Positions 46,729 through 57,920 of a stretch of 64,000 bases of DNA are shown piece by piece (positions within the stretch are counted from its first letter, which is position 1; each line of letters begins with the position of its first letter). Below the pieces are notes generated by a model. That model saw nothing but the letters and a program-made list of their open reading frames with translations, searched no databases and was not told the DNA's origin. Made by a program: the position numbers and the translations under genes. Source of the DNA: Armatimonadota bacterium (GTDB taxonomy: Bacteria; Armatimonadota; SYMT01); contig JAWLHY010000004.1 of the NCBI GenBank assembly GCA_041690135.1, positions 1-64,000 on the forward strand, given 5' to 3'.

Positions 46729-47364
46729 TCAATACGGACGCACGCTGAAGTCTCCGAGCGTCAGCGTCCAGCTGTCCCGCTGGTTTTCTGCCAGGAAACG
46801 CAGGACCGTTTCGCCTGCCAGGGCCGTGGCCATCAGGACCAGGTTGCGAGCCAGCGGGTAGTCGCAGACGTCGCCTGCGGCATCCGAGGGGACCCGGTAC
46901 TTTTCGTTCCAGATGACTTCAGCGTAGTCCGCGTTCAGGCCAACGTGCAGGCATGGCAGGCCCTCGCGCTCGCAGTGGTCGGCCACCAGACGACGGGAGA
47001 CGCTGTTGTCGAACCCGTCGACCACCAGGTCGGCGCCGGTCAGGAGTTTCCGGACGTTCTTCTCCGTAAGCTCCTTCGCTACCGCCTCGATCTCCACGCC
47101 AACCGCCCGAAACAGCAGGTGCTGGAGCGTCTCCGCCTTGAAGCCGCCCACGTCGTCGAGTGTCCACACCTGGGTGCTGACGTTATGCTCCTCGACGCGA
47201 TCGCGGTCGATGACGCACAGGTTTCCGGCGCCCTGCCGCGCCAGGTTCTCCGCCAGGTTCGACCCTACGGCCCCGGCACCGCATACAATGATTCGAGCTT
47301 CCGTCAGGCGAGCCATCACCTCCGGCCCGCGATAGATCTGTTCGTGGTGGAATTTCGTAGCCAT
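46729..47364 (-). CDS. ThiF/MoeB/E1-like adenylyltransferase
   Basis: CGAGAVGS, DRDRVEEHN, VDGFDN, DVCDYPLARN; no CxxC zinc pairs; start trimmed to MATKFHHEQ. Confidence 0.88.
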   Translation of the reverse strand: MATKFHHEQIYRGPEVMARLTEARIIVCGAGAVGSNLAENLARQGAGNLCVIDRDRVEEHNVSTQVWTLDDVGGFKAETLQHLLFRAVGVEIEAVAKELTEKNVRKLLTGADLVVDGFDNSVSRRLVADHCEREGLPCLHVGLNADYAEVIWNEKYRVPSDAAGDVCDYPLARNLVLMATALAGETVLRFLAENQRDSWTLTLGDFSVRPY

Positions 47365-47403
47365 ACTCAGTACCCCCGGTTCCGTACGCCCGGTTCCGAA
47401 TTG

Positions 47404-47628
47404 AACCGCCAAGACGCCAAGAACGCCAAGAGGGAAGAAGGGAAGTGCCAAGAAGAGAATGTAGGTAGCTCCGGATAGAGCGCCTGTTGTGCTCCGCCTA
47501 CACTAACTACCTGACGTATGCCCGTAGCTGCGTGCTGATTTGTCACCGCCAAGCACCAACTAAAAGCCATCCCATCCTCTTCTTCCACTCTCCTTTCCGA
47601 ACTTGGCGCTCTTGGCGTCTTGGCGGTA
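47404..47628. repeat. Inverted-repeat-bounded element (REP/MITE-like) inside the operon
   Basis: ACCGCCAAGACGCCAAGAACGCCAAG at ~47405 and CTTGGCGCTCTTGGCGTCTTGGCGGT at ~47602. Confidence 0.6.
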
Positions 47629-47639
47629 AAGAGAGCACC

Positions 47640-48548
47640 CTAGCGGCGGCGCCGCCGCCGGCCTCCCGGCGGGTGGATCTCCCGGTAGACTTCCTCCGGC
47701 AAGCCGTGGTCGCCGCCGACGCGGGTCAGGTAACCCCGCTGCCCCTCGCGGATCACGCCGACCAGGCTGGTAAGGTCGAACTTCTCATCCTCGCCGGAGA
47801 GGCAGATCCCCGCCAGCATCACCGACAGGTCGTTCTTACGGACCGTCGCGGTGTGGGTCTCCCCGTCCACCGTAAAGGTCACGGCGTAAACGTCCTTCCG
47901 CTCGACGAAGCCGCGAAACTTCCCGTTCGCGTGATTTACCGCGGCCTTGAGGCGCTCCTCGGTGCTGTCACGCTGTTCCTGCTCGCGCAGCAGAAGCTGC
48001 CACTCGTAGGCCAGCCGCTCCTGTGGGGTCAGCGACGCCTTCCGGAGGTCATCCGGCTTGCGCCCTTCCTGGAGCGACTCCCGGAGGTAAGCCGCTATGG
48101 ACGGGCTCCGGCGGGGGTTGCGGCCCTCGACAAAGAACCGCGAGCCATCCCAACGCGCTCGCACCGTGTCGAAGACCTGGACCTCTCCCGGCAACAGGAC
48201 CGGCACCAGCCCGTCGAGCCGGAAGCGGGTGTCCGAGCCTTCGGCAGCCAATGCCCACCAGCCGTCCGCACGCTTCTCCGTAAGCACCAGCGACACCGCG
48301 GGAAACAGCCGGAGATACTCCCGGATCTGGCGCAGGCGCGCGGCCCCCACCACCCGCGCGGTGTGGGAGTCCTCCGGCTTCAGGAGCGCCCAGCCCTCGA
48401 AGTCGCGGGGCGCGACCTGAAACTTCCAGACGATGCCGGCAACCCGTACCTGAACCCCGGCCCCTTTCAACACCGGAGCCACGAAGGTGCTCTCCAGGAA
48501 ACTCTGCTCTTCCTGAGTCATTCGCCGCAGCAACTCCCGCACATCCAT
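47640..48548 (-). CDS. Hypothetical protein with C-terminal AGICLSGED motif
   Basis: 302-aa ORF with genome-typical codon use, co-oriented in the operon; no recognised family. Confidence 0.75.
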   Translation of the reverse strand: MDVRELLRRMTQEEQSFLESTFVAPVLKGAGVQVRVAGIVWKFQVAPRDFEGWALLKPEDSHTARVVGAARLRQIREYLRLFPAVSLVLTEKRADGWWALAAEGSDTRFRLDGLVPVLLPGEVQVFDTVRARWDGSRFFVEGRNPRRSPSIAAYLRESLQEGRKPDDLRKASLTPQERLAYEWQLLLREQEQRDSTEERLKAAVNHANGKFRGFVERKDVYAVTFTVDGETHTATVRKNDLSVMLAGICLSGEDEKFDLTSLVGVIREGQRGYLTRVGGDHGLPEEVYREIHPPGGRRRRRR

Positions 48549-48559
48549 CGGAAATTCCT

Positions 48560-49318
48560 CTACTCCACGGGCTTCTGCCCCGTGATCACAAGACGGCGGC
48601 TCTCCAGGGTGAGCCGGCTGCCGTCGAGCCCACCGTAGACGACCACCCCCGCCAGGCCGGCGGAACGGAACATCGCCGTCAACTCGGCGGCGGTATACAG
48701 GCGCAGCGAATGACTGAAGCCCGAGCGGCGCCCATCCGGATAGATCAGCGTTCCCTTCACCTCCTGGCGACTGGTCGGGAGATCAAACGACCGCTCTTCC
48801 AGGACCAGGGTGCCGTCTTCCAGGCGCTGCACGCCGCTCTCCGCGAACCGGCGCAGGAGGCTGTCGCGATGGATGATCTCCATCAAGAACACGCCACCGG
48901 GTTTGAGGGCACGCACCACTCCCTGGAGAACCTTCTGATCTTCCGCCTCGTCTTCCAGGTAGCCGAAGGCGGTAAAGAGGTTGACCACGGCATCGAAACA
49001 GCCCTCGAAGGGGATCCGGCGCATGTCACTCCGCACCCACTGCACCTCCACGCCTTCCTCCGCAGCGTTCGCCTGCGCGTGGCGGAGGAAGCATTCACTC
49101 AGGTCGAGCCCGGTCATCCGGTAGCCTCGCCGGGCCAGTGGAACGGTATGCCGGCCGTGACCGCAGCAGAGATCGAGGAGGCGGCTTCCCGGCGACAGCG
49201 CCAGCAGTTCGCACACCCCCTCGACCTCCGCGGTGGTCCGCTCCGGAGTCAGCATGGGCGAGTAGCGCTGGAGGTACTCCTCATTGAAGATCTGCTCGTA
49301 CCAGGGGGTTTTCTCCAT
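48560..49318 (-). CDS. Class I SAM-dependent methyltransferase
   Basis: LLDLCCGHGRH, DMRRIPF, FDAVVNLFTAFGY, LKPGG. Confidence 0.88.
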   Translation of the reverse strand: MEKTPWYEQIFNEEYLQRYSPMLTPERTTAEVEGVCELLALSPGSRLLDLCCGHGRHTVPLARRGYRMTGLDLSECFLRHAQANAAEEGVEVQWVRSDMRRIPFEGCFDAVVNLFTAFGYLEDEAEDQKVLQGVVRALKPGGVFLMEIIHRDSLLRRFAESGVQRLEDGTLVLEERSFDLPTSRQEVKGTLIYPDGRRSGFSHSLRLYTAAELTAMFRSAGLAGVVVYGGLDGSRLTLESRRLVITGQKPVE

Positions 49319-49356
49319 CGCTTGCATCTCCGCTCGCTCCACACCTTTATCGGAGG

Positions 49357-49386
49357 GGTGTGGGGGTGTGGGGGTGTGGGGGTGTG
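49357..49386. repeat. Short tandem octamer repeat (GGGGTGTG)n
   Basis: About 3.5 copies seen directly. Confidence 0.7.
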
Positions 49387-49470
49387 GAAGAATGGGAGAG
49401 TTGTTGCCCAAGTGGGGCTCCCTATCTCCCATTCGTCCCCCACCCATTCGTACCGAGTTTTCGCACCAGA

Positions 49471-50433
49471 TCAGGCGGCCGCCTCTTCCAGCAGCATCGC
49501 CCGGTAGACGCGACCAAGGGTCTTGCTGATCGCACTTCGGATGAGCTTGTCGTCGAACCCTTGCTCATGGAGCGCCTGCCACTCGGGCTCGCACTCCTTA
49601 CGAAGGTCATCGATCATCGCCGGCACCAGGCGCGGCATATCGGTCATGTCGCCGGCCACGGTCACGCCGGTATCCCGCAGGCGCCCGAGAGCGTTGATGA
49701 CACGCCCCCGCACGACGAAGGTTCGTGCGAACGTCTCGACCGGAGTCAGGTCGGGACGCTGCTCCCGGATCGACTGGCGGGAAACCTCCGCAAAGCGCTC
49801 GCACTTGTGCTTGACGATCAGCCATTCGCCGAACACGTTCCGCAGGAGCGGGTTGGAGCGGAGGACCACCCCTTCCATCAGGTTGGTCTCGCCGGCCACC
49901 CCTTGCGCCAACCCTTCCGGAGAGACGCGCTCCAGAAGGGCGTTGAACGCCTCCAGACTCGGCTCGCCGCGCCAGATTTCCGCCACCCGCGGCAGACCCG
50001 CCGCGTCGCACAACTCCACGAAGAGCTCATAGGTAACGAACGCCTCGCCGATGCGGATGTCGAAAGCCCGGAACAAGATGCGGTCGTCGGAGACGTAGCG
50101 CACGCCCTTCTGGATGCCGGCTCCGCAGATCTCGCCGTAAACCACCACGCTGCCGTAGCCGCGCTCGCGGAACAGGGACCCCAGCTTTTGGAGAAGTTCC
50201 GGACGCTCCTTGAACCAGCGCACCGGGCGCCCCGCGTAGAACTCATCGCCGCCGGAGGTTCCGAACTCCTCGTTGCGGCCTCCGTATTGGACCTCGTCAA
50301 TGGAGGTCATCCCGGCGGGAAAGTAGACCCGGAAGTTCGTGCCATGCAGTTTCTCCGTGGCGATGACTTCCTTCACCGCCAGCAGTTCCCGCCGTTTCTC
50401 CAGGCCCACGATTTCCGGGTACTTGTAGAACAT
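49471..50433 (-). CDS. ATP-dependent RNA ligase, Rnl2-like
   Basis: Motif I EKLHGTN, III YGEICG, IIIa FRAFDI, IV EGVVLR, V VKHK. Confidence 0.85.
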   Translation of the reverse strand: MFYKYPEIVGLEKRRELLAVKEVIATEKLHGTNFRVYFPAGMTSIDEVQYGGRNEEFGTSGGDEFYAGRPVRWFKERPELLQKLGSLFRERGYGSVVVYGEICGAGIQKGVRYVSDDRILFRAFDIRIGEAFVTYELFVELCDAAGLPRVAEIWRGEPSLEAFNALLERVSPEGLAQGVAGETNLMEGVVLRSNPLLRNVFGEWLIVKHKCERFAEVSRQSIREQRPDLTPVETFARTFVVRGRVINALGRLRDTGVTVAGDMTDMPRLVPAMIDDLRKECEPEWQALHEQGFDDKLIRSAISKTLGRVYRAMLLEEAAA

Positions 50434-52341: not shown

Positions 52342-52490
52342 GGCCCGTACAAGTCGCTGGAGCGATTTAGACGTACAGGTGCTCTTCCACTGAGCTACGC
52401 CGGCAAGCAACGCCGGCGGCAGGACTCGAACCTGCGACCCCCCGGTCCGCAACCGAGACGTTTGTAAGCTCCCACCATAGGGTACGGGCC
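52342..52490 (-). ncRNA. Y-RNA-like ncRNA B: tRNA(GCG) cloverleaf permuted between D and anticodon arms
   Basis: Stem GGCCCGUAC/GUACGGGCC, GGAGC/GCUCC; order anticodon arm CUCGG-UUGCGGA-CCGGG, V GGGUC, T arm GCAGG-UUCGAGU-CCUGC, closed acceptor CGCCGGC..GCCGGCG, D arm GCUC-AGUGGAA-GAGC. Confidence 0.8.
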
Positions 52491-52492
52491 AA

Positions 52493-52564
52493 TCGGGGTG
52501 GGAGGAATCGAACCTCCGACATCGTGTACCCAAGACACGTGTTCTACCACTGAACTACACCCCG
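52493..52564 (-). tRNA. tRNA-Pro(UGG), no encoded CCA
   Basis: CGGGGUG/CACCCCG-A, anticodon arm CGUGU-CUUGGGU-ACACG, T loop UUCGAUU. Confidence 0.9.
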
Positions 52565-52583
52565 TCCGCTCTCCTCACATTGA

Positions 52584-52794
52584 GGCTCGTGCAAGTCGCC
52601 GCAGCACTGCGTTTTTCGTTCCATGGACAGTCCGCCGGTGAGCTCTTACGCACTCTTTAAAGGGTGGCTGCTCTTGAGCCGACCTCCCGGGTTCTCTCCA
52701 TCCACTTCCCTTAGCGCCCGCCGGACTGCCTCTCGCCCAGCGGCCCATTTCCTCTCGTACTCGGTTTGTATGCTGCGCCCGTAGGGCACGAGCC
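52584..52794 (-). ncRNA. Y-RNA-like ncRNA C carrying a 23S rRNA L11-binding-domain (H43/H44) mimic
   Basis: Stem GGCUCGUGC/GCACGAGCC, GCAGCA/UGCUGC, UACAAA and GCGACUU motifs; payload 52635-52690 CCGGGAGGUCGGCUCAAGAGCAGCCACCCUUUAAAGAGUGCGUAAGAGCUCACCGG. Confidence 0.78.
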
Positions 52795-52816
52795 GCGGCG
52801 ACCCTGGCCGCCGGAA

Positions 52817-52890
52817 TGCCGATGATAGGATTCGAACCTACAACCAACAGGCTCTCGACCTGCCTCCTCTACCGATTGGGATACACCGGC
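52817..52890 (-). tRNA. tRNA-Leu(GAG)-like, short variable loop, C33
   Basis: GCCGGUG/CAUCGGC-A, anticodon arm GCAGG-UCGAGAG-CCUGU. Confidence 0.75.
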
Positions 52891-52928
52891 ATCGCCCCAA
52901 TTCGGCCCCGCAACTGCGCGGCGACCGA

Positions 52929-53002
52929 TGCCCGCGGAGGGATTCGAACCCCCAACCTCCTGGTTCTAAGCCAGGCGCCTCTGCCAGTTGGGCTACGCGG
53001 GC
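52929..53002 (-). tRNA. tRNA-Leu(UAG), short variable loop
   Basis: GCCCGCG/CGCGGGC-A, anticodon arm CCUGG-CUUAGAA-CCAGG. Confidence 0.85.
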
Positions 53003-53014
53003 CTGAAAAATCCA

Positions 53015-53088
53015 GGCGAGTGGTGGGCCTCGAACCCACAACCTTCGGCATATGAGGCCGCTGCGCTCGCCAATTGCGCCACACTCAC
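53015..53088 (-). tRNA. tRNA with CAU anticodon (Met or Ile2), atypical
   Basis: GUGAGUG/CACUCGC-C, anticodon arm GCGGC-CUCAUAU-GCCGA, T loop UUCGAGG. Confidence 0.72.
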
Positions 53089-53109
53089 TCAAAAAGAAAC
53101 GGGGCCAAG

Positions 53110-53180
53110 GGTGTCGGGAGGGAATCGAACCCTCATCGGCAGGGCCACAACCTGCTCGCTTCCCATTAGCGTACCGACAC
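53110..53180 (-). tRNA. tRNA-His(GUG), C73 but no encoded G-1
   Basis: GUGUCGG/CCGACAC-C, anticodon arm GCAGG-UUGUGGC-CCUGC. Confidence 0.85.
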
Positions 53181-53181
53181 A

Positions 53182-53254
53182 CGGGGCTGGCGGGACTCGA
53201 ACCCGCGGTCTTCACCTCGACAGGGTGCTATGTTGACCACTACACCACAACCCC
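53182..53254 (-). tRNA. tRNA-Asp(GUC)
   Basis: GGGGUUG/CAGCCCC-G, anticodon loop CUGUCGA. Confidence 0.85.
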
Positions 53255-53296
53255 AAGTGCTGCCCCCGGCATGGGGCAGCGAAGAAACTTGCATTC

Positions 53297-53312
53297 CAGA
53301 TTGTCAAAGAAC
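53297..53312 (-). promoter_or_regulatory. boxA-like antitermination site
   Basis: GTTCTTTGACAATCTG on the minus strand, resembling rrn-operon boxA, preceded by a hairpin. Confidence 0.55.
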
Positions 53313-53350
53313 GGTGCCGTAAACGCTCGCGCGTTCGCGGATCCCGGTTA

Positions 53351-53422
53351 CTCCGGCGGCAGGATTCGAACCTGCAGCCCGCGCCTTAACAGGGCGCCGC
53401 TCTACCGTTGAGCTACACCGGA
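53351..53422 (-). tRNA. tRNA-Asn(GUU)
   Basis: UCCGGUG/CGCCGGA-G, anticodon arm GCGCC-CUGUUAA-GGCGC. Confidence 0.9.
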
Positions 53423-53435
53423 CCAGTTTTCAAGT

Positions 53436-53509
53436 TGCCTCCGGTGGGATTCGAACCCGCACTGAACCGCTCTTAAGGCGGTTGGCTCTGCCAATTGGCC
53501 TACGGAGGC
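53436..53509 (-). tRNA. tRNA-Leu(UAA), short variable loop
   Basis: GCCUCCG/CGGAGGC-A, anticodon arm ACCGC-CUUAAGA-GCGGU. Confidence 0.83.
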
Positions 53510-53525
53510 GCTATTCAATTTCCAA

Positions 53526-53599
53526 CAGGGAAGAGAGGATTCGAACCTCCGACCTCCGGGTCCGCAACCCGGTGCTCTATCCAGCTAAGCTACTCCCCC
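53526..53599 (-). tRNA. tRNA-Arg(GCG)
   Basis: GGGGGAG/CUUCCCU-G, anticodon arm CCGGG-UUGCGGA-CCCGG, D loop AGCUGGAUA. Confidence 0.85.
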
Positions 53600-53606
53600 A
53601 AATTTA

Positions 53607-53738
53607 GCGGCGCGCAAGTTCAAGAAGCTGAAGTTCCGGATTTGAACCGGCACCTCCTGAGTAAGGATCAGGTGCTCTACCTTTGAGCTATTCGCTTGTG
53701 AAGCGAAGTTTGTAAGCTTCTCCGTTTGGGCGCGCCGC
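53607..53738 (-). ncRNA. Y-RNA-like ncRNA D: tRNA cloverleaf permuted between T arm and acceptor stem
   Basis: Stem GCGGCGCGC/GCGCGCCGC, AGAAGCU/AGCUUCU; order closed acceptor UUCGCUU-CAC-AAGCGAA, D arm GCUC-AAAGGUA-GAGC, anticodon arm CCUGA-UCCUUAC-UCAGG, V, T arm CCGG-UUCAAAU-CCGG. Confidence 0.8.
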
Positions 53739-54001: not shown

Positions 54002-54044
54002 AAAAATACCGAAGCCCCGAGGTCCGGATGGACCTCGGGGCTTC
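54002..54044 (-). terminator. Attenuator terminator 1
   Basis: 15-bp stem GAAGCCCCGAGGTCC/GGACCTCGGGGCTTC followed by GGTATTTTT on the minus strand. Confidence 0.75.
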
Positions 54045-54071
54045 TACGCAAAGCCACTGCAGCCAAAATAG

Positions 54072-54230
54072 CTACACCGGAGGTCCTATCTGAATATTGC
54101 GATCACTTCGCCGCGGGAGATGTCCGGGGTTGACGGCATTACCCAGCAGCACAGCCAGATTCAGCAAGGAGCTAATCATCCCTGTCTGAACGTTCTTCTT
54201 ATTGATCTGCGTGTAATCCATCCAGCCCAT
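54072..54230 (-). CDS. Putative leader peptide 1 (52 aa, MGWMDY...RNIQIGPPV)
   Basis: GGAAGAG upstream; the GGA-CCT-CCG codons form the antiterminator strand complementary to the terminator 5' arm. Confidence 0.6.
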   Translation of the reverse strand: MGWMDYTQINKKNVQTGMISSLLNLAVLLGNAVNPGHLPRRSDRNIQIGPPV

Positions 54231-54270
54231 CTTCGCTCTTCCGATCTCATCAACCCCGTCTCTGCATCGC

Positions 54271-54298
54271 ATTATAGATGCATTCTCCGAAGAGTCAA
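54271..54298 (-). promoter_or_regulatory. Sigma70-type promoter (proximal)
   Basis: TTGACT-16 nt-TATAAT. Confidence 0.7.
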
Positions 54299-55131: not shown

Positions 55132-56490
55132 ATGAAGATGGGCAGAGCATCAGCGATTGCGGACATGCAGGAACCGGTGGAAGCGAGCGATGCACTGGAA
55201 CTGCTGTGGGACGAAGAAACGGATCCCGGTCTTCCCGAAATGGATGACTTGCCGGCAGAGGGAGCCGATCCGCGGAGCCCCACCGCATCGGAATTGCCGG
55301 TCCGGATTGCAGCCCTGGTCCGCCGCTGCGCGCCGTTGGAGCCAAAACCGCTGCTAAAGCCGACGCCGCGCTCCTATCAGGACGAGGCTCTGGCGGCCTG
55401 GCTGGAAGAAGGGGGCCGTGGCGTGGTGGTCCTCCCCACCGGAGCGGGCAAGTCGATCCTGGCAATGATGGCGGTAGTACGCCTGGGGGTGCGTCCGCTG
55501 GTCGTCGTCCCCACGCTGGAACTCCTCAAGCAGTGGGCCGAAGGTCTTTCCACTCATCTGGGGCTGCCCGCGGAGAGTGTCGGCGTCGTGGGCGGCGGTG
55601 CGCGCCGCATCGGCCCGGCCACGGTCATCACCTACGACTCCGCCTGGCGCCGGCCACGCGACCTGCGGTCGTTCGGGTTACTGGTCTTCGACGAAGTCCA
55701 TCACCTCCCCGCGGCTTCTTACCGCCGCATCGCGGATGCTTCGGAAGCACCGTTTCGCCTCGGCCTTACAGCCACCCCCGAGCGGGGTGACTTCCGCCAC
55801 AGCGACCTGGATGAACTGGTGGGACCGGTAGTCTTCCGTCGCTCGCCCGCGGAACTCTCACGGAGCCGGCACATCGCGCGCTTCCGCCAGGAGCGGCTCT
55901 TCATCGAGCTCACGGAAGAGGAAGAGTTCGAGTACCACCAGCTTATGGCGCAATTCAAGTGGTACATGGCGCAGAAACGGCTGTGGGGCCAGGGCTTTCA
56001 GCGACTCGTCTTCCGTGCTGCCTCCGATCCCGGGGCGCGGGAGGCGCTGCGGTGCCACCAGCGAGCCCGGCAGGTCGCCCTCAATGCTTCCCGGAAAGCG
56101 ACCGAGGTGCTGAATCTCCTCCAGCGTCACACCGACGACCGGGTGCTCATCTTCTGCGAGTTCACCTCCGTGGTGGATAGCTTGAGTCGCCAGCTACTGC
56201 TTCCCTCCGTCACCTACCGCACCCCGCCCGCGGAGCGACGCCTGACCCTGCAGCGCTTCCGCAGCGGCGTTTACACGAAGCTGGTGACCGGACGGGTGTT
56301 GAACGAAGGGGTCGACGTGCCGGACGCCAATGTCGCCATTGTGGTCAGCGGCAGCTCCACGCCCCGCGAGCAGATCCAGCGTCTCGGGCGAGTACTGCGC
56401 CCCAAAGAGGAGGAAGCAGTCCTCTACGAGTTGGTCGCGCGGGGAACCGTGGAAGAGCGCGCTGCCCGCGCCCGCAAGGTCCGGGACTGA
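55132..56490 (+). CDS. SF2 DEAH helicase, XPB/Rad25-like
   Basis: RSYQDEAL, LPTGAGKS, DEVHH, GLTATPER, NEGVDVPDA, QRLGRVLRP. Confidence 0.9.
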   Translation: MKMGRASAIADMQEPVEASDALELLWDEETDPGLPEMDDLPAEGADPRSPTASELPVRIAALVRRCAPLEPKPLLKPTPRSYQDEALAAWLEEGGRGVVVLPTGAGKSILAMMAVVRLGVRPLVVVPTLELLKQWAEGLSTHLGLPAESVGVVGGGARRIGPATVITYDSAWRRPRDLRSFGLLVFDEVHHLPAASYRRIADASEAPFRLGLTATPERGDFRHSDLDELVGPVVFRRSPAELSRSRHIARFRQERLFIELTEEEEFEYHQLMAQFKWYMAQKRLWGQGFQRLVFRAASDPGAREALRCHQRARQVALNASRKATEVLNLLQRHTDDRVLIFCEFTSVVDSLSRQLLLPSVTYRTPPAERRLTLQRFRSGVYTKLVTGRVLNEGVDVPDANVAIVVSGSSTPREQIQRLGRVLRPKEEEAVLYELVARGTVEERAARARKVRD

Positions 56491-56558
56491 GCTGGGGAAG
56501 GGAGCTGGTGAGGGGTGAGTGGTGAGTGGTGAGTGGAATTTGGAGAGGCGAAGCGGAG

Positions 56559-57920
56559 ATGAGTTTTCGATTGGTGGATTTGAAGAAGACGGTACGCAAG
56601 GGGAAGGACGGCTACCAGGTAACTCCCGCGCGCCTGGAAGGGCGCCAGGAGCAGTACCGGATTGAGTTCCTGCTGGGGCAGTTCGAGCAACACCTGGGAC
56701 AGCCCCGGAAGAACCTGGACCCCGCGGTCTTGCTGGATTTCGTGGGAGACGCTCGGATCGGGCGGGGTCTCCTGGCCACCCTTTCGCAGTGGTACCGCAT
56801 GCGGCCGCGCACGTTCACGGAAGTCCTCACAGCACCAGGGCCGGAGAAAAGGGCACGGGGTCGCGGAGATATAGCGGGCGATAAGAGCAGCGATGAACGT
56901 CTTCGACACCTGGCGGAGCTGGGCATAGAGGGACCCGCCGACCTGCGGGCCTGGTTGTATGCCGCCGTGAACCGGGGAGGCGGCGGGTTTCTGGCCCCGG
57001 CCGACGAAACACTCTTTTGGAAGATCCAGGCCCGCGCGCTGGGAATCGGCCGGGAAGAGTTGGAGCTGATGATGCTTCTCGATCGTACCGAAGAAGCGGT
57101 CCTGGTGCGCACCGGTCCGCGCCCCACGGCGGCGGATGTGATCGCGGCCTATAACGCCCGCGCCCACACAACTCTACTCCGCTCCTGCGCGGAACTCACC
57201 CTCCGGTGCGATGGCCGGCGCGAAGCCCTCGCAACGGCCCTGGAGAGTTGGGCCGCTCCGCTGGGTGTAGAGGGGCGGGTGGATGGCTCCTGCGTCACGC
57301 TCCTTGGCCAGGCGGACGTCCTGGGCTGCTGGACGCGTCACGGTCGCAAGCTGGAACGAGTGGCTCTCGAACTCCTGGGCCTACCGGAGCTCCAGGTGCG
57401 AGAGGCGCGTGGTCTCCTGGGTATCGGAGAACGGGAGTGCGGCTTCGCCTGGAAAGGAGAGACCCTCGCCCTCCTGACCGCCGGAAGCGAATGTCCGCTC
57501 CGCCATGAGCCGCTGGAAAGGATCGAGGCGCTTGCGACCGGCCTCCGGCGTCTGCGAACGGAAACGGATGGAGGCATTTCCTGGGGCGTACGGCGGCCGG
57601 GTCAGCTCCTCGGCGTAGCCGGCGGCGCCTGCCTTCCCCATCTGGAGCTCCGCTACAACGATCTCGCCCTCTACCTCCGGTTGACAGAGGCTGGAGAGGG
57701 TGCGCAGTGGCCTCGGACCTTCGCCGGCAAGACCCCGATCGGATTGATCGAGGGAAAGTCGGGAGACACCGCCACGCGCGTCCACCTCGCCGGGGCCGAG
57801 CCGCGATCATGCGAACTGGGGGACCTGGGAGCTCTCCTTCGCGAACATTGCTCACGGCTGGCCCCTGAACTCTACCCACAGCCCCGCGCGACCGGCCGGC
57901 AACTCCCGCAAGCCGCGTGA
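56559..57920 (+). CDS. DUF790/Bax1-like partner of the XPB helicase
   Basis: Directly downstream of the XPB-like gene; VIAAYN...TLLR and GRKL segments resemble DUF790. Confidence 0.55.
   Translation: MSFRLVDLKKTVRKGKDGYQVTPARLEGRQEQYRIEFLLGQFEQHLGQPRKNLDPAVLLDFVGDARIGRGLLATLSQWYRMRPRTFTEVLTAPGPEKRARGRGDIAGDKSSDERLRHLAELGIEGPADLRAWLYAAVNRGGGGFLAPADETLFWKIQARALGIGREELELMMLLDRTEEAVLVRTGPRPTAADVIAAYNARAHTTLLRSCAELTLRCDGRREALATALESWAAPLGVEGRVDGSCVTLLGQADVLGCWTRHGRKLERVALELLGLPELQVREARGLLGIGERECGFAWKGETLALLTAGSECPLRHEPLERIEALATGLRRLRTETDGGISWGVRRPGQLLGVAGGACLPHLELRYNDLALYLRLTEAGEGAQWPRTFAGKTPIGLIEGKSGDTATRVHLAGAEPRSCELGDLGALLREHCSRLAPELYPQPRATGRQLPQAA

Follow-up and report, generated by a model that had tools for sequence, protein, structure and literature searches.

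A conserved Y-like RNA, linked to a Ro60-like gene, resembles two distant elements of 23S ribosomal RNA

We analysed a 64,000-nucleotide (nt) stretch of DNA from an Armatimonadota bacterium (contig JAWLHY010000004.1, positions 1 to 64,000), referred to below as the window. On its minus strand lie a tRNA array, two RNAs that resemble bacterial Y RNAs, a tRNA gene between them and a gene encoding a Ro60-like protein. Genes for an RNA ligase, a methyltransferase, a conserved protein that we call unk276, and a ThiF-like adenylyltransferase are on the same strand (Table 1). Y RNAs and Ro60 are conserved from bacteria to humans. Our subject is the first of the two Y-like RNAs, which is closed by a stem, runs from position 52794 to 52584, and is 211 nt long. 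Its sequence and structure copy two separate parts of 23S ribosomal RNA (rRNA): the sarcin-ricin loop (SRL, helix H95) and the GTPase-associated centre (GAC, helices H42 to H44). Together, these elements form the docking site of translational GTPases on 23S rRNA. The RNA is conserved, its occurrence is coupled to that of Ro-like genes, and RNA repair genes are found around it. We are highly confident that it is a conserved, Ro-linked mimic of the SRL and GAC.

The structure described here was derived by comparison of homologous copies, and column numbers refer to their alignment. Helix P1 is formed by family columns 9-18 with 327-336, and double changes occur in nine of these ten pairs. Together with P2, in which pairs also covary, it is 89-92% paired, with double changes in 13 of 17 pairs. 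Hence, the two ends of the RNA come together in a long stem that is interrupted by an internal loop. The family consensus for this scaffold is GYGCCCUAAC...AACUUGCRC. A preliminary description of the window, made from the sequence alone, had placed the RNA in the scaffold of neighbouring tRNA mimics. We agree, since the stem and loop motifs are near-identical in the adjacent RNA of YrlA type, which also ends with the ACUUG motif (52351-52355). The internal-loop motif and P2 region are the presumed docking site for the Ro60-like protein. Inside the scaffold, hairpin P3 separates the two rRNA copies and has double changes in all six of its pairs. A family profile, used with nhmmer, covers positions 52791-52585 of the window (E 3e-49). 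Note that a fold of the window RNA as a single sequence is not more stable than that of shuffled sequences (z -0.93); thermodynamics alone would thus have missed this RNA.

Table 1. Minus-strand features of the window, with their positions and supporting details
Feature	Position	Strand	Details
tRNA array, nine tRNA genes or tRNA-like elements	52816..53693	-	directly upstream of the rRNA-mimic RNA
Whole rRNA-mimic Y-like RNA	52584..52794	-	closing stem, SRL copy, hairpin P3, helix P4, H42-H44 copy
P1, 5' strand GGCUCGUGC	52786..52794	-	pairs with 52584-52592
Internal-loop motif CCUAC and P2, 5' strand	52772..52785	-	motif at 52785-52781; P2 strand at 52777-52772, pairs with 52600-52605
SRL (H95) copy	52745..52764	-	exact 12-mer AGUACGAGAGGA at 52761->52750, flanks CCG/UGG
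Variable hairpin P3	52720..52744	-	between the two rRNA copies; family columns 65-70 with 89-94
P4	52717-52715 with 52611-52609	-	closes the H42-H44 copy
Copy of 23S H42 (part), H43 and H44 (GAC)	52623..52705	-	Rfam RF02541; closed by P4
P1, 3' strand GCACGAGCC	52584..52592	-	preceded by conserved ACUUG motif (52593-52597)
tRNA-Pro(UGG)	52493..52564	-	between the two Y RNAs
Second Y RNA, tRNA-like module (YrlA-type)	52342..52490	-	same scaffold; stem GGCCCGUAC/GUACGGGCC
Ro60-like protein (TROVE-like ring and vWA), 542 aa	50690..52318	-	reading frame open back to 52339; AGGAGG before start 52318
Rnl2-like ATP-dependent RNA ligase	49471..50433	-	PF09414 E 1.9e-19; TIGR02307 E 1.7e-20, below cut-off
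S-adenosylmethionine-dependent methyltransferase	48560..49447	-	
Conserved protein unk276	47640..48548	-	accompanies the RNA in 20 other loci (blastp to cluster 1)
ThiF/E1-like adenylyltransferase	46729..47451	-	paired with unk276; PF00899 E 1.7e-30

Our evidence for the GAC copy comes from covariance model searches and from the alignment. The preliminary description had matched a segment of the RNA to H43 and H44 by hand. This resemblance is real and is on the minus strand: positions 52705 to 52623 match positions 1077-1160 of the 2925 in the Rfam large-subunit (LSU) model, LSU_rRNA_bacteria, with 54.3 bits (E 2e-13, gathering score 50). A local E-value scan gave the same match 48.6 bits. For the 56-nt core (52690 to 52635), a manual count on the alignment found 48 positions equal to the Rfam bacterial consensus. 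The helices of H43 and H44 either covary or are invariant, and the comparative data add an H42-like helix formed by 52705-52698 and 52630-52623. Soil-metagenome contigs from relatives, about 93% identical to the window, have changes in both partners at 52624/52704 and 52627/52701, which are H42-like pairs. A further helix, GCAGUCCG/CGGACUGU, had been thought to enclose the segment. We reject this helix: it is complementary in the single sequence of the window, is 49.7% paired across 75 homologues, and its score is reached by 416 of 500 shuffles and by slid controls alike. In the comparative structure, the bases involved belong to P3 and the H42-like helix.

The tertiary structure of the GAC also appears to be preserved. 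In the 75 copies, the columns of the GAC base triple are U.U-A (70 copies), C.C-G (three) or C.U-A (two). We equate these columns with 23S positions 1072 and 1092-1099, and we assume both this numbering and the isostericity of the alternatives. The window has the C.C-G form, made by C52670 with C52650-G52643, and three further copies from the same phylum have the C-G member of the triple's pair. That the three positions change in concert is an argument for retention of the native tertiary fold. Covariation of both helices and triple bears out the earlier view that the rRNA copy diverges in a structure-preserving way. The preliminary description had put forward L11 binding, titration of thiopeptides, a decoy role and a template for repair as candidate functions. 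We take A52675 and A52647 to be the equivalents of A1067 and A1095; among the 75 copies, 62 have A at the first position and 64 at the second. This variability weakens any case for a dedicated thiopeptide sponge.

A check proposed in the preliminary description was comparison of the mimic with the 23S rRNA of its own host. The GAC of the window is an isolated 83-nt match, not part of a complete 23S gene, and is the sole LSU match in the 9.1-Mb assembly. No true 23S was found in that assembly. Among 12 relatives, a 23S was found in only one, from the same phylum, and this was partial and without the GAC. Because the window assembly has no 23S, we made the comparison in three other carriers. The SRL 12-mer is identical in the true 23S of all three genomes. 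The GAC comparison worked in two, both cyanobacteria; in the third carrier, G588, the search motif missed the true GAC. For these two cyanobacteria, the GAC triple is C-type in the true 23S and U-type in the mimic, with 62-63 of 94 positions identical. Hence, the mimic is not a recent copy of the host's 23S gene.

We also observed that metagenome contigs pile up on the H43-H44 core only (window positions 52636-52707, depth 270-3770), because true 23S of other organisms aligns there at 85% or above. Read mapping to the mimic RNA is consequently prone to rRNA contamination. One run labelled as metatranscriptomic, and flagged 'probably DNA', provided low-depth contigs of 151 nt, over 52689-52839 and 52445-52568, that are too weak either way on expression.

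The GAC had been described as the whole payload. It is indeed present, in the 3' half of the RNA, but this account was incomplete, since the 5' half contains a copy of the SRL about 55-60 nt upstream of the GAC copy. The 12-mer AGUACGAGAGGA is what is known as the universal 12-nt core of the SRL, with its GAGA tetraloop and bulged-G motif. This exact 12-mer occurs in all 23 cyanobacterial copies retrieved with a pattern for the GAC only, which are thus an unbiased sample for SRL invariance. Across the family, the SRL stem is in register (columns 40-44 with 60-63, 96% paired); for columns 40-42 with 61-63, pairing is 96-100%, though the 5' side is fixed by the search pattern. We noted one SRL-only relative, from a high-GC organism, present identically in five loci (L111, L126, L129, L146 and L167; for example, L126:3955-4100) and also in L109 and L115. 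It shares the closing stem of Y type, and its SRL copy is perfectly in register (GGCC-12-mer-ACGCC); an unrelated hairpin comes next, and there is no GAC copy. Hence, the SRL and GAC modules can occur separately.

Structure was tested using 75 distinct copies (alignment A3). We assessed 53 pairs, in P1, P2, the SRL stem, P3, P4, the outer and inner parts of the H42-like helix, H43, and H44. In total, 89.7% of cells are paired, compared with 31-51% for slid partners. Double changes are found in 36 of the 53 pairs (363 cells), and no shuffle, of 500, equals the alignment on any of the five measures. Conserved non-pairs are also present (columns 211/275, for example). Note that the manual structure was used for these tests. 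The structure produced by RNAalifold from the 75-sequence alignment, in which the 3' strand of P4 was wrongly paired to part of H44, was set aside.

The distribution of the RNA was determined by several searches. With a profile of the Ro-like protein, we identified 80 loci in genome contigs. The preliminary description had suggested looking for rRNA fragments in other loci that encode proteins with TROVE and vWA parts, and the same element is present in five of the 80. Briefly, these five have the exact SRL 12-mer on the strand of the gene, and all have the whole architecture; nhmmer over the 80 loci found full-length RNA in those five and the window only. So, homologous loci carry the element and its divergence preserves structure. 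The same nhmmer search gave more than 100 weak, same-strand, matches to stem halves in the Ro-like loci, from which we conclude that most of these loci carry RNA arrays on the same scaffold. Scanning metagenomes with a pattern for the SRL and its 5' context yielded 94 stretches; in 79 of them, the copy is full or nearly so. The GAC-only pattern, which is independent of the SRL, matched 23 of 401 sampled cyanobacterial genomes, once each and always with the full architecture. In the phylum of the window, the SRL-based pattern matched four of 401 genomes; one of these is that of the window, and the other three hold the full RNA. The SRL-based pattern had no match in six genomes from the same family as the window's organism, and neither it nor the GAC-based pattern matched a viral contig collection. 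Overall, the element is found across at least four phyla. There are about 100 sequences in the family, with an alignment and a supported structure, and Rfam 15 has no family for an RNA of SRL plus GAC.

Some copies depart from the common plan. An insertion of about 66 nt lies inside the 5' strand of the H42-like helix in L137:3768-4055 and L096:3967-4254, and an extra hairpin of about 20 nt follows P3 in L058 and L092. Hence, the scaffold accepts insertions at defined points. Two genomes have two full-length copies each, on different contigs: G017 (L058, L180) and G097 (L207/L215, L218).

We next consider the protein partner. The preliminary description had tied the RNA to Ro, and this link stands: the RNA ends 245 nt upstream of the Ro60-like reading frame, on the same strand, and the predicted protein structure matches Ro60 and Rsr. 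There is no match to Pfam TROVE (PF05731) at E <= 0.01, and the profile of the protein scores only E 0.94 against PDB sequences. Some relatives carry the PF25045 vWA_Ro60 domain. For the AlphaFold2 model (mean predicted confidence, pLDDT, 82), the top Foldseek matches are all Ro60, Rsr or phage Ro60 proteins, including Rsr of D. radiodurans. The matches are full length, with E from 1.7e-11 to 1e-8 and TM scores of 0.5-0.65. With this model as a guide, we treat the 542-aa protein as a divergent, putative Ro60-like protein.

Co-occurrence supports the pairing of RNA and protein. Of the 401 cyanobacterial genomes, 46 have a Ro-like gene, and all 23 genomes with the RNA are among these. No RNA was found in the 355 cyanobacterial genomes without a Ro-like gene (Fisher p 5e-25, for genomes that are related and so not independent). 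In a complete genome from the phylum of the window, the RNA and Ro-like gene are about 253 kb apart. Separately, a scan at the Rfam gathering scores, of 13 of the 80 Ro-like loci (L072, L075, L068, L057, L064, L081, L077, L074, L066, L020, L014, L038 and L017), found 55 tRNA or tRNA-like matches, all on the strand of the gene, with up to 22 in L017. No rRNA match was found in that scan of the 13 loci. Many of the 55 matches span only model positions 4-67, and are tRNA-like modules, without acceptor ends, inside Y scaffolds. Arrays of tRNAs beside this Ro-like family look like a general rule.

To describe the wider gene neighbourhood, we clustered open reading frames around 85 RNA-bearing loci, named them by Pfam, and counted those on the strand of the RNA. 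Note that eleven of these loci have less than 300 nt of flanking sequence and some are duplicates. The most frequent neighbours are NADAR and unk276 (20 loci each, the latter usually followed by ThiF), the Ro-like gene (17), ThiF (15), and an AAA ATPase (13). Microbial PARG (nine), Tpt1/KptA (eight) and an RNase T-like protein (seven) follow. Less common are an RNA ligase with a tRNA-binding domain (four), NUDIX (three) and a protein with only the C-terminal domain of L7/L12 (three). PARG and NADAR occur together in eight loci, and, where the flank is 1 kb or more (73 loci), 58 loci have one or more of these families. The first downstream reading frame is on the same strand in 54 of the 66 loci that have one; NADAR (16), unk276 (11), AAA (eight) and Tpt1 (six) are the most common. 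The median distance from RNA to NADAR is 164 nt.

The functions described for these neighbours concern RNA modification and damage. According to the accessible parts of one report, NADARs take ADP-ribose off guanosine in RNA, and bacterial PARGs, which take it off the 2'-OH of RNA, shield cells against a toxin that targets RNA (PMC11833690). RNA breaks are cleaned up by Tpt1 together with ligases and, possibly, NADAR (PMC9503650, in the portion available). The ThiF of the window belongs to the same cluster as the ThiF genes of 15 RNA-bearing loci. No Pfam or NCBIfam family, and no usable Atlas match, was found for unk276, for which Foldseek returned only weak matches to tandem OB/S1-like and Mpa-like folds (E >= 2.5e-3). 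The protein with only the L7/L12 C-terminal, factor-binding, domain has 156 aa (L096:7268-7735, also in L134 and L150; PF00542, E 1.8e-16). It scores 47.5 bits with TIGR00855, below the cut-off of 84.4. This L12 paralog is encoded on the strand of the RNA in three loci that also have a Ro-like gene and unk276, and two of these have ThiF too. It is the only relative of a ribosomal protein nearby, and the RNA is not in the 5' untranslated region of a ribosomal-protein operon.

The RNA has features of several known systems. Like the bacterial Y RNAs bound by Rsr or Ro60 (YrlA/Yrn1, RF02553), it lies on the strand of a Ro60-type gene, next to that gene or close by, and has a long end stem with an internal loop. 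Its design is also modular, its payload imitates an RNA of the cell, and an RNA of YrlA type is encoded on the same scaffold 94 nt downstream. The differences are that the payload imitates 23S rRNA (SRL and H42-H44) rather than tRNA, that the length is about 205-215 nt rather than 80-130 nt, and that the stem motif is GYGCCCUAAC/AACUUGCRC rather than GNCGAAN0-1G. Furthermore, the partner belongs to a divergent Ro60-like family without a Pfam TROVE match. Consistent with this, the Rfam Y_RNA and YrlA models give no match for 52584-52794 at E <= 1, and 211 nt is outside the 80-130 nt range. In the accessible text of PMC4201824, the canonical Ro-binding motif is GGUCCGA, or GNCGAAN0-1G in bacteria, and the modules described for bacterial Y RNAs are tRNA-like or simple hairpins, none of them rRNA-like; the preliminary description had said as much.

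Ribosomal-protein operon leaders (L10, L1/L11) provide another parallel, because there, too, an RNA from outside the ribosome imitates a part of rRNA that binds protein. Those leaders are cis-acting 5' regions of ribosomal-protein mRNAs, and each mimics one site loosely. By contrast, the RNA described here is closed by a stem, lies away from ribosomal-protein genes, reproduces two widely separated rRNA elements nearly letter for letter, and is linked to Ro and repair functions. The same two elements have been studied off the ribosome as synthetic 'ribosome-in-pieces' oligoribonucleotides (SRL and thiostrepton-domain fragments), in what is said to be classic work from 1997. Those laboratory constructs kept the elements on separate molecules, whereas here evolution has joined both on one RNA. 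The rsr-yrlBA-rtcBA RNA repair operon similarly groups a Ro-type protein, Y RNAs, and an RNA ligase (excerpts of PMC7790460). It differs from the present system, in which RtcB, RtcA and RtcR are absent, the ligase is Rnl2-like, and NADAR, PARG, Tpt1 and ThiF are the accessory proteins. Finally, long tRNA arrays (L-arrays) spread horizontally, have genes for RNA processing and HNH endonucleases as neighbours, and respond to translational stress (excerpts of PMC8421152). The window likewise has a tRNA array, and has Y RNAs, a Ro-like gene and the Rnl2-like ligase on the same strand.

We found no description of an rRNA-like RNA in the available portions of PMC7790460 or PMC8421152; the terms Ro60, TROVE and 'Y RNA' are absent from the latter. 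Our search of published literature, which covered main texts, found no rRNA-like Y RNA and no non-coding RNA that joins the SRL and GAC. We regard the rRNA payload of this Y-type RNA, whose Ro partner is divergent, as unprecedented.

What might this RNA do? Ribosome toxins attack the 23S site where translation GTPases dock. In the reading that we favour, the RNA would be a modular, trans-acting, Y-type RNA of the divergent Ro60-like protein. The closing stem (P1, the CCUA(A)C/ACUUG internal loop, and P2) would be a scaffold for protein docking, common to the tRNA-like Y RNAs of the same loci. The payload would then show the SRL and GAC, in a native-like fold, off the ribosome, and could engage proteins that normally recognize the ribosomal factor-binding site. 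Working as a molecular mimic within what appears to be an island for RNA damage or translation stress, it may act as bait, either decoy or sentinel, for enzymes that damage this site of rRNA. Candidate attackers are ribotoxic nucleases or RNA ADP-ribosyltransferases. The Ro-like ring, with PARG, NADAR, Tpt1, RNA ligases, and RNase T, might absorb, sense, or reverse the attack. A role as bait would explain why both elements are kept together and are faithful, the presence of repair and reversal partners, the tRNA mimics on the same scaffold, and the patchy distribution. We hold it tentatively, as a role that the RNA may well not have.

Several points weigh against bait. Some concern the RNA itself. 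All metagenome copies were retrieved with a pattern that contains the SRL, so that its invariance among them is by construction, and the flanks of the window's SRL pair only over 3 bp, in a register shifted from that of the family. The canonical Ro-binding motif (GNCGAAN0-1G or GGUCCGA) is absent from the RNA, which has the family motif GYGCCCUAAC and is about twice the usual Y RNA length. Others concern location. For the 23 cyanobacteria, RNA and Ro-like gene are on one contig and within 12 kb in 11 cases, 57 kb apart in one, and on different contigs in 11; in metagenomes, a Ro-like gene is within 4 kb of the RNA in only 14 of 94 stretches. Moreover, the RNA is about 160 nt upstream of NADAR, or of other genes, in many loci, and a cis-acting leader fits this arrangement too. 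With regard to mechanism, we infer a discrete transcript, Ro binding, and bait function. We found no direct evidence for a toxin that targets the SRL/GAC site in these phyla and, to our knowledge, no enzymatic attack on the GAC is known. A decoy would also need to be abundant relative to ribosomes. Lastly, the neighbours equally fit break repair, in which a ligase, and then Tpt1, would act before ADP-ribose by-products are processed (PMC9503650, in the portion available).

The main rival to bait is that the RNA has the canonical Y RNA role of tether or adaptor. Here, the SRL and GAC would dock uL11, uL10-L7/L12, the L12 paralog, a translational GTPase, or unk276, AAA or NADAR proteins, onto the Ro-like ring, much as a Y RNA couples Rsr to polynucleotide phosphorylase (PNPase). 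Known Y RNAs do tether Ro60 to effectors (excerpts of PMC4201824 and PMC8058203), and isolated SRL RNA binds EF-G and IF2 in vitro (PMC3496166, in part). In addition, both the GAC triple and the H42 internal loop are preserved, as a protein that recognizes the fold would need. Of the possible partners, the L12 paralog is encoded at three RNA-bearing loci and unk276 has its weak OB/S1-like matches. However, these proteins are candidates only: three of 85 loci is few, and the fold assignment of unk276 is weak, with E no better than 2.5e-3. By itself, a tether also leaves unexplained the neighbourhood of PARG, NADAR and Tpt1 and the patchy, island-like, distribution. We therefore consider this explanation possible and somewhat doubtful.

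Alternatively, the RNA could be a cis-acting leader that mimics rRNA. It would regulate downstream NADAR, AAA, Tpt1, or unk276-ThiF genes via a ribosomal protein or factor freed when ribosomes are damaged. The prevalence of same-strand reading frames downstream, and the typical distance to NADAR, fit such a leader, and mimicry of rRNA by leaders is well established as a principle (PMC8058203 cites a 2018 review by Meyer). Yet pairing of its two ends gives the RNA the scaffold that the tRNA-like Y RNAs also have, and the downstream gene varies by locus. The RNA comes shortly after the Ro-like gene in L069, L080 and L060 (in L060, with an unknown reading frame between them); in L069 it is followed by a hairpin with a T-run, and in the window by a tRNA and another Y RNA, rather than a reading frame. 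Strict co-occurrence with the Ro-like gene, at the genome level, would not be expected of a leader either, and we think this explanation unlikely. Still less probable is an RNA antitoxin or inhibitor that restrains a self-encoded enzyme attacking the SRL or GAC, such as a PIN-type nuclease or a protein with the ADP-ribosyltransferase (ART) fold, until infection or stress. PIN toxins that cleave the SRL do exist in mycobacteria, and PIN-domain reading frames follow the RNA in L161 and L152. Similarly, Tpt1, an ART-fold enzyme, follows it in eight loci. However, PIN domains are found in only two of the 85 loci, no conserved toxin partner was found, and Tpt1 has an ordinary role in repair. Because the window assembly is without a true 23S, a stray piece of rRNA, in the form of a decaying gene fragment or functionless assembly artefact, had to be considered. 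We regard such a relic as excluded. The SRL and GAC are in the wrong order and about 60, rather than about 1600, nt apart; both copies sit in a covarying scaffold that is not rRNA; the RNA is conserved in at least four phyla; and there are coordinated differences from the host's own 23S, where comparable.

A more elaborate form of the bait interpretation is that RNA and Ro60-like ring make a free-standing ribonucleoprotein replica of the ribosomal GTPase centre. This would serve as an innate 'ribosome decoy', luring toxins or phage factors, and would probably be loaded with uL11 and stalk proteins, or with the L12 paralog. Damage to it, by cleavage or ADP-ribosylation, would be reversed or sensed by PARG, NADAR, Tpt1 and ligase. 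We offer this as a speculation that is rather unlikely to be correct as it stands. If it were true, then the RNA, with the tRNA-like Y RNAs and spare tRNA arrays, would form a general target-mimic arm of RNA-damage immunity.

Y RNAs have a variable payload and, in the parts of the literature accessible to us, only tRNA-like payloads have been described in bacteria. An SRL and an L11/thiostrepton domain on one RNA would mean a Ro system aimed at the translation-factor site of the ribosome. This offers a concrete set of ligands: uL11, L10-L12, EF-G/EF-Tu, ribotoxins and RNA ADP-ribosyltransferases. The RNA further connects Ro with the reversal, only recently described, of RNA ADP-ribosylation by PARG and NADAR, and suggests what the widespread 'orphan' hydrolases may protect. 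For structural work, the RNA could be a natural, minimal, model of the GTPase-associated centre.

Other features of the window are less directly connected to the RNA. The YrlA-type RNA has a partial match to the Rfam YrlA model (52442-52378, 36.6 bits, below the cut-off of 69) and is called 'tRNA-Arg' by ARAGORN. In the upstream array, three tRNAs on the minus strand (52816-52891, 52929-53002 and 53436-53509) have the Leu anticodons GAG, UAG and UAA, respectively, and are only 74-76 nt long. The long variable arm that a bacterial tRNA-Leu should have is missing, and these three may be non-canonical or decoy tRNAs. Just upstream of the array is a 77-codon open reading frame (53981-53748). This comes after a small, separate unit at 54003-54298, also on the minus strand, with a near-consensus promoter (TTGACT, 16 nt, TATAAT; 11 of 12 matches), an open reading frame for a hydrophobic peptide (about 49 codons) and, at 54044-54003, a GC-rich terminator hairpin that has 15 bp and a T-run. 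On the plus strand, and divergently oriented, 55132-57920 encodes an XPB/ERCC3-like helicase (ResIII, Helicase_C, ERCC3_RAD25_C) and a DUF790 protein, an arrangement called XPB-Bax1.

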